Shown here: one piece after another, positions 5,596 to 8,526 of the stretch
How positions within the stretch are numbered: position 1 is the stretch's first letter
How the letters are laid out: each line of letters starts with the position of its first letter
NCBI GenBank assembly: GCA_905215695.1
Contig: CAJMQN010000003.1
Span: 171,436 to 235,435 of the forward strand
Direction of reading: 5' to 3'
DNA: 64,000 nt
Source of the DNA: an uncultured bacterium
Lineage (GTDB): Bacteria > Bacillota > Clostridia > Christensenellales > HGM11417
The notes under the pieces: generated by a model
What the model was told of the DNA's origin: nothing
The model's input: only the letters and a program-made list of their open reading frames with translations
Databases searched by the model: none
Position numbers and translations under genes: made by a program

Positions 5596-6138
5596 ATGAA
5601 AAGGAATATCAGAATCGCATCGACGATCACGACGATGCTGCTCGTTGTCGCAATCATGTGCGTGGGAATCTTCGCCGCGACGCAGATCAGTGTCACGGGA
5701 AACGGCACGCTGACCTTCAGCGCCCAAGACGTTTACGCGACGGTGACCGTTGACAATCAGGAGGCGGGGGAAGGCGTGACAGAGGGCGTCAGAACTTGGA
5801 CGTTCGACAAGGACACCGCTCCCGGCGAATCGGCAACCGAGTCATTGACCTTTTCGCCGATTTCCGTTGACCCGACGACCCGCACCGCGACGGTAAAGGT
5901 GACGGTGAAAAACGATTTCTCGGCGGACAGCGGCATCGGCATTTCCGCGGCGCTTTCCGTGACTTCGAATGACACGGAACTCGTGACGGTCTCGGGCGCG
6001 GAGACGGCGACCGTTGCGCAAGGGGCGACGAAGGAATTTACGGTGACGTTCACGCTGACGGACAAGGCGGTCGAAGCGGGGCTTGGAGAGGGTGTGACCT
6101 TTGCTTTTTCGCTGACGCTGACAAGGGCGGCGGCGTAA
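5596..6138 (+). CDS. Small secreted beta-rich protein, putative SipW substrate
   Basis: GGAGG then ATG 5596. N-terminal K/R + hydrophobic segment (MKRNIRIASTITTMLLVVAIMCVGIFAATQISVTG), then a T/V/S-rich sequence. Immediately upstream of a SipW-type peptidase gene. Confidence 0.6.
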   Translation: MKRNIRIASTITTMLLVVAIMCVGIFAATQISVTGNGTLTFSAQDVYATVTVDNQEAGEGVTEGVRTWTFDKDTAPGESATESLTFSPISVDPTTRTATVKVTVKNDFSADSGIGISAALSVTSNDTELVTVSGAETATVAQGATKEFTVTFTLTDKAVEAGLGEGVTFAFSLTLTRAAA

Positions 6139-6145
6139 TCCCCAT

Positions 6146-7213
6146 ATGAAGGAAGAGCGGAGCAGAGTCAAACGGGCGCTCGGCGTCGCGGGGGACGCGG
6201 TCTTTGCGCTCGTGCTGCTCTTCTGTATCTGCGCTGCGGCGGTGCTTCTCTGCCTGCGCGGTGAGGGACTCGCCGGGGCAAAGCTCGGGATTGTGCAGTC
6301 TCGGAGCATGGAACCCGGCTTACGTGTCGGGGACGTCGTGCGCGTCCTTCGGGAGGGCGAGTATGCGCGCGGGCAAATCATCGTGTTTTACCGCGCGACG
6401 GATCTCTATGCGGGCGCGGCGGACGCTGCCGACCTCGGCAGCCGTCCCGTTTGGATTCATGAAATTATCGAGCGCAAAACATTGCCCGACGGTCGCATCG
6501 GCTATCTCACAAAGGGGAGCGCGAACGCGTCCGACGACGGCGCGTACGTGCCGCAGGATTTTGTGCTCGGCAGAGCCCTTCCGCTCTCTCCTTTTTGGAG
6601 CCGCGCTGTCGGTTTTGTCTCGTCGGTGAAGGGGATTGTTCTGCTCGTCCTCCTGCCCTGCGCGGTCATGCTCGTACTTCTGTCTCGGGAGCTTGTGTGT
6701 ATTCTGCTCGAACCGCCCGAGCGGACGTTTTACAGGAAATCCTTTACCGCCCGCTTGATTCTTGCGCCGACCGAGGTCAAGTCACGCTATCTCGCGGTCA
6801 AAAACGAATTGCTGTCCTATCGGGACTGCCGTGCGCGCACGAGTTGGAAGGCGGAGAGCTTTCGCGTGCGCGGCAAACCCTTTGCAAAACTAGATATCAG
6901 GGGCAGAACGCTCAAACTCTGCCTTGCGCTCCCGCCCGAACAGGCGGCGGAACGCAAGTACGGAATAGAGGACGGCTCCGCCCGTGCCGCGTTCCGCGAT
7001 TTTCCGAGTATCATGCGGATACGGAGCGCCCGAGCGGTCAACTATGCGAAACAGCTGATTACCCTCGCCGCCCTCTTTCATGGCTTTGAGCGGTCGGAAA
7101 ATCCTGCGCCCGCCCTCCTTCCTCCCGAGATGACGAGACGGCAGATGCTCCGCGCGGGTCTGCTCAGGCGGACAACGATGCGGAGACCCTTTCCCTCAAA
7201 GGAGCCGAGATGA
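6146..7213 (+). CDS. sipW: Signal peptidase I, SipW/ER-type (S26B), with ~165-aa C-terminal extension domain
   Basis: Catalytic-Ser box QSRSMEPGLRVGD and LTKGSANASDDG box. Second TM at aa ~160-187, then the extension FYRKSFTARL...RIRSARAVNYAKQLITLA. Confidence 0.8.
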   Translation: MKEERSRVKRALGVAGDAVFALVLLFCICAAAVLLCLRGEGLAGAKLGIVQSRSMEPGLRVGDVVRVLREGEYARGQIIVFYRATDLYAGAADAADLGSRPVWIHEIIERKTLPDGRIGYLTKGSANASDDGAYVPQDFVLGRALPLSPFWSRAVGFVSSVKGIVLLVLLPCAVMLVLLSRELVCILLEPPERTFYRKSFTARLILAPTEVKSRYLAVKNELLSYRDCRARTSWKAESFRVRGKPFAKLDIRGRTLKLCLALPPEQAAERKYGIEDGSARAAFRDFPSIMRIRSARAVNYAKQLITLAALFHGFERSENPAPALLPPEMTRRQMLRAGLLRRTTMRRPFPSKEPR

Positions 7214-8526
7214 AAAAATATCGAAAATTTGTCCTTGCGGGCAATCTGTGTCTCGTATGTCTGGCGTTTGCGGCGGTCGCGCCTATCGGACTGCGCGCGG
7301 CAAACCGGATTTTTCTGTCCGGCGGCGCGCAGATTGTCTATGAGAATACGGGCGAGGTGACCCGTCCCGACGATGAAACGCTCGCTGAACAAAAGGCGCA
7401 GCTCGAGAGCGCCGGACTTGTCGTGAGCGAGGACGGGACGGTCACTTTGCTCAACAATACGGGTTCGATGGGCGGCTCGGCGGAGCAGGTCAGGTCAATG
7501 CGGGAGGGACTCTTGACAAGCGGCATTCTCTCTTACTGCAAATACGAGGGCTCGGTCTGTACCGTCATGAACGAACTTGTCGCGATTCTCGATTTTTCGG
7601 GGTACTACATTCAGGCTTTTTCGGAGAACTGTCTGGACGGACTGAAGGACGCAATCTTCGGAAATTGGAGCGTGAGTTTTGACAATGTAACCGTCCCCGT
7701 CTATGATTCGGTGACGGGCGCGGCGCTCGCCCCGGTCACCGCAAGTTTTTCGCAGGGCGGCTATGTCATCGGCGGAACGCGCTCGGCGCGCTACTCTCTG
7801 CGCGTGGTTCTTCCGAACATCGGCGCGGAGGTGTTCATGTTCGGGGAGAACAGTCTCAATTTCCCCAACATGGGGGCGCCGACCAATCTCGCAATCGACA
7901 TTAGCAACCTCGCGCTGAAACGCGTGGACGGTAAAATATTGGGTATTGACCTGCATCCGTATGTGTTCGGCGCGGCGGCGTGGCAGAACGGTAAGCCGAA
8001 CCATATCCATTTTATCGGGAGCGAAGACAATCAGCTCGAATATGCGATGTCCGCATCGCTTTCGCAGTTGGATATCATCGACCTCGCTGTGCTCGGCGCG
8101 GATCTGAACGTCGAAATTTTTTCCAAGCCGCGAAAGGGCGAGGTGTTTACCCAACTCGCCGTGGGAATGACGAAGTCGAGAGGGGAGGGCGCTCTCACCC
8201 TTCGCGTGTACGACCTGCCCCATGACGAATTGTCGCCGGACAGGGATGCGGTGGGAATCTTGAATCTCGGGCATTGGTTCAAATACGTTTACGGGGAAAT
8301 TCCCGACGCTACCTTCGAGCATGTCCGGCGGGATTCGGAGAATCAGGTAAACACGGCGGACGTCGCCGAACTCACGTACGATTGGGAGGGCATCGACCAA
8401 AACGGTACCGTCACGCACCGCGCATACTGCCGGCACAGCGGCGAAGGGACGACGGGCGCGGAGATCGGTTGGTTCGAACGCGGTCAGCGTTTCTTCCGCC
8501 CGGACGGGACGCAGATTGTTCTGTAA
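7210..8526 (+). CDS. Secreted hypothetical protein (438 aa)
   Basis: ATGA overlap with the SipW stop. N-terminal signal-like MKKYRKFVLAGNLCLVCLAFAAVAPIG. No family recognised. Confidence 0.6.
   Translation: MKKYRKFVLAGNLCLVCLAFAAVAPIGLRAANRIFLSGGAQIVYENTGEVTRPDDETLAEQKAQLESAGLVVSEDGTVTLLNNTGSMGGSAEQVRSMREGLLTSGILSYCKYEGSVCTVMNELVAILDFSGYYIQAFSENCLDGLKDAIFGNWSVSFDNVTVPVYDSVTGAALAPVTASFSQGGYVIGGTRSARYSLRVVLPNIGAEVFMFGENSLNFPNMGAPTNLAIDISNLALKRVDGKILGIDLHPYVFGAAAWQNGKPNHIHFIGSEDNQLEYAMSASLSQLDIIDLAVLGADLNVEIFSKPRKGEVFTQLAVGMTKSRGEGALTLRVYDLPHDELSPDRDAVGILNLGHWFKYVYGEIPDATFEHVRRDSENQVNTADVAELTYDWEGIDQNGTVTHRAYCRHSGEGTTGAEIGWFERGQRFFRPDGTQIVL

Follow-up and report, generated by a model that had tools for sequence, protein, structure and literature searches.

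In Bacillus subtilis SipW, a signal peptidase encoded in the tapA-sipW-tasA operon, relies on the catalytic residues Ser47, His87 and Asp106 (PMC8767453); according to a passage of that paper which cites Terra et al. 2012, it has its C-terminus at the cis (cytoplasmic) side of the membrane, and its last 20 residues activate matrix genes independently of the peptidase. Proteins of the YjbR fold, for their part, are predicted DNA binders by virtue of their similarity to the C-terminal domain of T4 MotA (PMC7641849). The present analysis concerns a 64,000-nucleotide stretch of DNA from an uncultured bacterium of the Christensenellales (contig CAJMQN010000003.1 of assembly GCA_905215695.1, positions 171,436 to 235,435; hereafter the window, meaning this whole stretch), which holds two sipW operons. 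In operon 1 (5596-8526) the signal peptidase SipW-1, the 355-residue product of 6146-7213, continues for 160 residues past its second transmembrane helix, starting at residue 196 (nt 6731), whereas operon 2 opens with a separately encoded membrane protein of 213 residues and includes a second peptidase, SipW-2.

A preliminary description of the window had proposed that the extension of SipW-1 and the C-domain of the 213-residue protein are homologous, and that together they represent an uncharacterized accessory module of SipW-dependent secretion or fibre assembly, functionally analogous to TapA. Our analysis upholds the first proposal and leads to a different view of the second: a more fitting description is that an unnamed and widespread tail domain, predicted to be cytoplasmic, is present here twice, and that its association with SipW is recurrent and not exclusive. 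The reading that we favor, with a probability of roughly 60%, is that both are copies of one uncharacterized basic domain of about 120 residues with a YjbR/DUF1801-type fold, which would serve as a promiscuous tail module at the membrane, facing the cytoplasm, and bind a polyanion.

Remote homology of the two segments and their fold

Judged by sequence profiles and structure models, residues 196-313 of SipW-1 and residues ~90-208 of the 213-residue protein can be taken as established but remote homologues in the register that had been proposed by eye, an assessment made because profiles and fold concur and not on account of pairwise identity, which is about 21%. A BLASTP comparison of the two segments fell short of significance (E 2.7) and put them in another register, so that the by-eye alignment would not be defensible on pairwise grounds; a hidden Markov model (HMM) built from 375 domain copies of SipW-1-tail relatives, by contrast, aligned the 213-residue protein in the proposed register, matching its residues 100-193 at E 6.6e-7 when this was the single target. 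When the same model was run against all 812 six-frame open reading frames (ORFs) of the window, the 213-residue protein was the sole match besides SipW-1, at E 3.4e-4, the runner-up lying at 0.67. Comparison of the two family alignments with hhalign gave a weak match, with E 6e-4 over 90 columns, again in that register, and a probability of only 28.5%.

Searches from the opposite side led to the same family. Reciprocal HMM matches landed on domain copies of the large family described below, and jackhmmer, seeded with the domain of the 213-residue protein and run on 11,193 sequences, converged in four rounds on 249 targets without growth past round 2; these targets consisted of close homologues of the 213-residue protein and of the SipW-1-tail family, with SipW-1 itself at E 2e-39. 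Single-sequence phmmer likewise returned family members exclusively below E 0.05. Word-indexed homologue searches retrieved almost no matches with the SipW-1 tail, whether as a single sequence or as alignment A1, and 13 close relatives with the 213-residue protein, the farthest at 55-58% identity; a sequence search of the PDB gave no meaningful match.

The two domains were modeled with AlphaFold2 (AF2) from separate alignments, at a predicted local distance difference test score (pLDDT) of 95.2 and a predicted template-modeling score (pTM) of 0.87 for the SipW-1 tail, and of 84.6 and 0.76, respectively, for the 213-residue protein. Both models display the order H-H-E-E-E-E-H-E-H of helices (H) and strands (E), and in Foldseek searches of the PDB the entries 9t2w and 2oc6 (YdhG-like/DUF1801), 2fki (YjbR) and 2od0 (VP1028) rank high for both, the first three heading the list for the SipW-1 tail. 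The entry 2a1v (DR2400/DUF419) ranks fourth for the 213-residue model only, and 5jlt, the C-terminal domain of T4 MotA, ranks 6 for the SipW-1 tail and 26 for the other model; template-modeling (TM) scores were 0.51-0.59 and 0.35-0.49, respectively. The shared element order and the shared neighbors thus bear out the homology, in line with profile searches and jackhmmer convergence.

Neither Pfam-A nor NCBIfam holds a model that covers the domain. The Pfam YjbR model (PF04237) reaches SipW-1 with a sub-threshold match over the beta-hairpin region (15.5-17.5 bits against a gathering threshold of 30.1; E 0.007-0.009) and gave no match in the 213-residue protein, while among 46 family domain copies one matches YjbR (E<=1) and one matches DUF5655. 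Since no existing model covers the domain and the YjbR match is sub-threshold, we treat it as a family without a model of its own, with a probable YjbR/DUF1801-type ('double-wing', CyaY-like) fold as judged from the structure models.

A large family of basic tails and its link to SipW

When the SipW-1 tail served as query in an exhaustive phmmer search, representatives of 2,649 clusters (defined at 50% identity) were retrieved at E<=1e-3, mostly from gut Clostridia. The majority of them measure 400-2,800 residues and contain two to seven tandem copies, and behind SipW peptidases one to seven copies occur in tandem. Literature searches yielded no description of the domain or of SipW fusions, and a cluster look-up gave no names. 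The copies are basic, with a median isoelectric point (pI) of 9.65 and a median net charge of +9 per 118 residues; that of SipW-1 stands at pI 10.6 and +15 (11.25 and +21 for the whole extension), and that of the 213-residue protein at pI 9.6-9.8. Behind 142 of 190 copies there follows a motif of the form (Y/F)..P....LL.kGLIK, with the core L..xG[LIV][LIV][KR], which SipW-1 carries as LLPPEMTRRQMLRAGLLRR. By eye this motif resembles the start of a uL15-like domain, a likeness that we do not claim, the uL15-like HMM having given no match there.

A uL15-like domain proper, corresponding to the C-terminal half of the ribosomal protein (PF00828; TIGR01071 positions 72-143), was found in 42 of 150 representatives (~28%), always at the extreme C-terminus, and in 20 ORFs from 80 genome loci. 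These loci had been sampled with the consensus sequence of the family HMM, blind to SipW, from metagenome-assembled genomes of gut Clostridia, among them Christensenellaceae, Oscillospiraceae, Ca. Gallimonas and Pumilibacter muris. Both window proteins are devoid of the uL15-like domain, its HMM giving no match in the SipW-1 tail. Carriers include the representatives P0047, P0035, P0048, P0043, P0145 and P0057 and the loci L011, L019, L022 and L023.

In 42 representatives a lone N-terminal hydrophobic helix is followed by an acidic or Pro-rich linker and by domain copies, which is the plan of the 213-residue protein. The flanks of this helix carry on average 0.40 Lys/Arg on the N-side and 3.0 on the C-side, with 34 proteins favoring the C-side and two the N-side, a bias that predicts an N-out, C-in orientation. 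Larger members begin with a signal peptide and Listeria-Bacteroides (Flg_new) or beta-helix repeats, pass through an RKKK-flanked transmembrane helix and then a KKK-flanked hydrophobic hairpin, and end in three domain copies and the uL15-like domain. Moreover, in 23 of the 80 loci the domain gene has immediately upstream of it a giant ORF that exceeds 3,000 residues and is of the MBG, YDG or BspA-LRR adhesin type (e.g., L070 1-9423, L063 1-9669, L013 18-9368); in P0035 and P0048 surface part and tail form one polypeptide, a second fused-versus-split pattern. As far as can be predicted from sequence, the 213-residue protein conforms to the SipW-1-tail family in its membrane tether, in the placement of the domain on the positive side of that tether and in its basic charge.

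The arrangement seen in the window, with the domain fused to SipW in one operon and separate in the other, recurs. Among the 150 best representatives, nine, the window's own cluster included, are fusions to a SipW domain, and two of the other eight (P0146, P0110, P0145, P0059, P0138, P0139, P0057 and P0037) end in a uL15-like domain in addition. Among the 80 loci, SipW was present within 10 kb in six, fused or directly adjacent in five of these, and absent within that distance in 74. One of the positive loci (L039) reproduces the layout of operon 2, a free 190-residue SipW coming first and a domain protein with an N-out anchor next. In L035 (2234-5850) and L055 (7293-10933 and 14443-18061, minus strand) SipW bears a multi-transmembrane N-terminal extension of ~250 residues and is each time followed by a two-transmembrane protein of ~820 residues with the basic domain, L055 containing two such pairs. 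A rough estimate that assumes a few sipW genes per genome of ~2,500 genes puts chance adjacency well below 1%, which indicates that the SipW link is enriched.

The link is thus recurrent and non-exclusive, embracing about 6% of the family. The concern that the domain might be widespread where sipW or TasA-like genes are lacking is accordingly borne out in part, given 2,649 clusters and the 74 loci without a nearby SipW, and the fused-versus-separate pattern is real without being specific to SipW. A small HMM and a regular expression for the N-termini of the window's TasA-like proteins found no match in the 80 loci, which is not a measure of TasA co-occurrence. Relatives of the 213-residue protein itself are also divided: one of 91% identity retains the sipW operon context, whereas the homologues at 55-58% identity are found amid unrelated housekeeping genes, behind a P-type ATPase, a galactokinase and an FAD oxidoreductase and not far from rpsT, gpr and an RNase III-like gene, without sipW. 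A metagenome scan for such relatives added one locus, with the same context lacking sipW.

Gene content of the two operons

The coordinates of the features discussed here are collected in the table. In SipW-1 the second transmembrane helix spans residues ~163-188 (nt 6632-6709), and the peptidase part scores 48.5 bits with TIGR02228, just below the cutoff of 51.85, and E 3e-8 with the SipW model NF046067. When six SipW sequences are aligned, its Ser54, His105 and Asp131 show no variation, so that the catalytic Ser/His/Asp set is conserved, the roles of the residues being assigned by reference to B. subtilis SipW (PMC8767453). In a 133-residue variant of SipW-1 (P0001; from a 2,526-bp ENA contig) the peptidase domain is missing altogether, the N-terminal transmembrane segment being joined straight to the second one and the tail at a repeated 'GIV'; either a deletion that arose naturally or an error of assembly could account for this. 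The SipW-1 cluster includes further short members of 115-243 residues.

The gene preceding SipW-1 encodes a protein that the preliminary description labeled TasA-like and that shares 38% identity (E 8e-29) with the 184-residue product encoded upstream of the SipW fusion P0146. Neither this protein nor the 438-residue product of the third gene matches a Pfam or NCBIfam family at cutoff, and the non-peptidase genes of operon 1 are without a match to the signal-peptide model TIGR04088, in contrast to the operon-2 proteins.

Coordinates in the window of the features of both sipW operons
Feature	Position	Strand	Description	Basis
Operon 1, gene 1	5596..6138	+	180 aa, secreted, signal-anchor-like N-terminus	ORF; gene call in L091
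SipW-1, peptidase part (aa 1-195)	6146..6730	+	N-terminal transmembrane segment, extracytoplasmic ER-type (endoplasmic reticulum) signal peptidase domain, second transmembrane segment	
SipW-1, C-terminal basic domain (aa 196-313)	6731..7084	+	predicted YjbR/DUF1801-like fold, predicted cytoplasmic	AF2, Foldseek
SipW-1, basic tail (aa 314-355) plus stop	7085..7213	+	family post-domain motif, here LLPPEMTRRQMLRAGLLRR	
Operon 1, gene 3	7210..8526	+	438 aa, N-terminal signal sequence; start overlaps SipW-1 stop	
Terminator-like hairpin	29708-29731		just before the promoter-like site of operon 2	
Best promoter-like site ahead of operon 2	29762..29790	+	TTGACA-17-TAAAAT with TG	consensus scan only
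213-aa protein, N-terminal part	29934..30200	+	N-out transmembrane anchor aa 4-25 (nt 29943-30008), Pro/Glu-rich linker aa 26-89	
213-aa protein, divergent basic-domain copy (aa ~90-208), short tail, stop	30201..30575	+		HMM, jackhmmer, AF2
Operon 2, 207-aa protein	30572..31195	+	SipW-cognate signal peptide	TIGR04088 21.2 bits (cutoff 19)
SipW-2	31197..31877	+	226 aa from ATG; peptidase and charged helical cytoplasmic tail, without basic domain	gene call in L088
Operon 2, two large camelysin/TasA-like proteins (891 aa, 441 aa)	31902..35904	+	SipW-cognate	TIGR04088, PF12389
Terminator-like hairpin ending operon 2	36009..36048	+	18-bp stem, then T-run	

The free-standing protein does consist, as had been stated, of a transmembrane helix, a Pro/Glu linker and the C-domain, and its gene is the first of the sipW operon. 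The helix has no Lys or Arg ahead of it and REKR behind it, and the linker gives a low-complexity match of the TonB polyproline type. This protein shows no match to the TIGR04088 signal peptide, whereas three of its operon-2 neighbors do. Its stop codon and the start codon of the gene that follows overlap (ATGA), and the promoter, the terminator and such overlapping stops and starts lead us to predict that operon 2 is a single transcription unit. Directly upstream, and parted from it by a terminator-like hairpin, lies the gene for a polytopic membrane protein of 360 residues (28639-29721) that matches no family and is kept in relatives (347 residues in L085-L087).

SipW-2 scores above cutoff with TIGR02228 (77.2 bits against 51.85) and reaches 90.5 bits with NF046067. 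Its residues ~175-226 form a highly charged helical tail of about 50 residues (RRYRAERRAETDAEREEHKKALEELERLRAELKKRED), which aligns opposite a similar charged stretch past the second transmembrane helix of the fusions P0110 and P0059; since P0110 is also its closest match among the 150 representatives (E 2e-32), SipW-2 fits the reading of operon 2 as a split version of a fused gene.

Candidate functions and comparison with known systems

In the reading that we prefer, the domain of SipW-1 would act in cis as a cytoplasmic C-terminal tail past the second transmembrane helix, and in operon 2 it would be supplied in trans by an N-out, C-in anchored protein whose gene is probably transcribed together with, and translationally coupled to, the SipW-2 cassette. 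More generally, the module would be carried by the machinery of exported proteins, that is, by SipW peptidases, by giant adhesin-like proteins and by small anchored proteins downstream of such giants. From the predicted location in the cytoplasm, the strong positive charge, the repetition in tandem and the uL15-like cap we infer that the likeliest role is that of a tail tethered to the membrane and binding a cytoplasmic polyanion. The ligand could be RNA, the ribosome or DNA, and its binding might couple or cluster the site of export and processing with a partner, possibly with an effect on secretion, or else signal from that site; the domain would thereby amount to an enlarged version of the peptidase-independent C-tail function of B. 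subtilis SipW.

Several points weigh against this reading. The cytoplasmic location is predicted from the positive-inside rule and by analogy, and the fold relatives YdhG/Fra and CyaY serve iron handling and not nucleic-acid binding. About 94% of the family is without a SipW link, so a function specific to SipW may hold for a subset only, and the 55-58% homologues of the 213-residue protein lie away from sipW. As to the homology itself, BLASTP fails, hhalign assigns a probability of just 28.5% and the E-values from the profiles are moderate; the 213-residue model was built from seven aligned sequences, only two of five models being confident, the likeness of the two models was judged by element order and common PDB neighbors, and the Foldseek matches are at the level of the fold only (E 0.009-0.1, TM 0.35-0.59). 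Some of these points, together with the shallow family alignment of the 213-residue protein, could be taken to indicate a chance or compositional likeness of two small basic alpha/beta domains without common ancestry. We hold this to be highly improbable, because the profile match is unique among the window ORFs, jackhmmer converges on its 249 sequences and then ceases to grow, reciprocal matches land on domain copies, independent alignments yield the same element order and PDB neighbors, and the succession of transmembrane segment, linker and domain is common to family members.

The remaining alternatives accept the homology and differ as to function. A domain serving solely in fibre assembly or secretion that depends on SipW, acting in the manner of TapA on the TasA-like proteins, would account for its fusion to SipW-1, for its place as the first and translationally coupled gene of operon 2, for the recurrence of fusions and adjacencies in other lineages and for the arrangement kept in the 91%-identical relative; this model is nevertheless very doubtful, given that the domain is predicted to be cytoplasmic and is strongly basic whereas TapA is a secreted SipW substrate, that SipW is absent within 10 kb from the great majority of sampled loci, that the domain mostly occurs as the tail of an adhesin-like giant or in an anchored protein of its own and that the more distant homologues of the 213-residue protein lie outside sipW operons. 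The predicted YjbR/MotA-like fold (PMC7641849) and the basic charge would suit a membrane-tethered gene-regulation module, whose double-wing domain binds DNA and reports export or processing activity or surface contact, after the fashion of ToxR-type regulators or of the B. subtilis SipW C-terminus, whose cytoplasmic last 20 residues activate matrix genes according to the passage of PMC8767453 cited above. Arrays of up to seven copies with a uL15-like cap would, however, be odd for a sequence-specific regulator, and the likeness to the B. subtilis tail is functional only, with no sequence similarity shown, so that we regard this possibility as unlikely. An equally unlikely option is a protein-protein scaffold without a nucleic-acid ligand, in which the repeats oligomerize or bind a cytoplasmic structural partner and thereby cluster or anchor surface proteins and SipW. 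Tandem repeats behind the transmembrane segments of giant adhesin-like proteins that have no obvious wall anchor agree with it, as does the presence of non-nucleic-acid binders in the fold family (YdhG/Fra, frataxin-like), and the sole counterpoint is the consistently high positive charge which, together with the uL15-like cap, points to a polyanionic ligand.

A more specific version of polyanion binding, which we consider quite unlikely and mention for its consequences, is that the basic double-wing tails, often uL15-capped, serve as membrane docks for ribosomes or nascent mRNA, so that SipW substrates and giant adhesins are translated beside their own site of export and processing. If true, this would be a counterpart in bacteria to the docking of ribosomes at the endoplasmic reticulum, placed on the bacterial homologue of the signal peptidase of that organelle, with the dock provided in cis on SipW-1 and in trans from operon 2.

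Whichever ligand applies, a very large domain family of gut Clostridia that has no Pfam or NCBIfam model appears as the predicted cytoplasmic tail of signal peptidases and giant surface proteins, and its combination of putative double-wing and uL15-like domains ties genes for surface-protein export to a suggested binding of nucleic acids or ribosomes. Because one operon has the domain joined to SipW and the other encodes it separately, the window provides a naturally occurring pair for tests.

Among known systems, TapA resembles the 213-residue protein in being encoded first in an operon with sipW and a TasA-type gene and in being a non-enzymatic accessory. The functional analogy drawn in the preliminary description nonetheless fails on topology: TapA is secreted, processed by SipW and active outside the cell on TasA fibres, whereas the strongly basic, often uL15-capped domain lies behind the C-terminal transmembrane segment of SipW or behind an N-out anchor and is thus predicted to be cytoplasmic, the domain of the 213-residue protein included. 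Unlike TapA, moreover, the family of the 213-residue protein is mostly unlinked to sipW, and we neither found nor claim any sequence similarity to TapA. An extracellular role in the manner of TapA is therefore unlikely, being the least compatible with the data. The ribosomal protein uL15 compares with the family through its C-terminal half, to which the capping domain of ~28% of the members corresponds; these members are not ribosomal proteins, and their scores lie under the equivalog cutoff.

In terms of fold, the closest relatives are MmcQ/YjbR (PF04237, formerly DUF419) and YdhG/DUF1801 (2fki, 2a1v, 3h9x, 2oc6, 9t2w), which appear to belong to the same alpha+beta class and are likewise basic, with the C-terminal domain of T4 MotA (5jlt) as a structural analogue. 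The score of SipW-1 lies far under the threshold of the YjbR family (17 versus 30.1 bits), and the known YjbR/DUF1801 members are small, soluble, single-domain proteins, whereas those of the tail family are tethered to the membrane, arranged in tandem and fused to SipW, to giant proteins or to uL15-like domains. The tail of B. subtilis SipW differs in size, with ~20 residues in the published passage as opposed to a 160-residue extension with a folded domain in SipW-1, and no sequence relationship between the two is shown. Both tails nevertheless follow the peptidase and lie on the cytoplasmic side of the membrane, by prediction in the case of SipW-1, and since the B. subtilis tail is described there as having a second function, the family found here is a structural candidate for that poorly understood activity of the SipW C-terminus.

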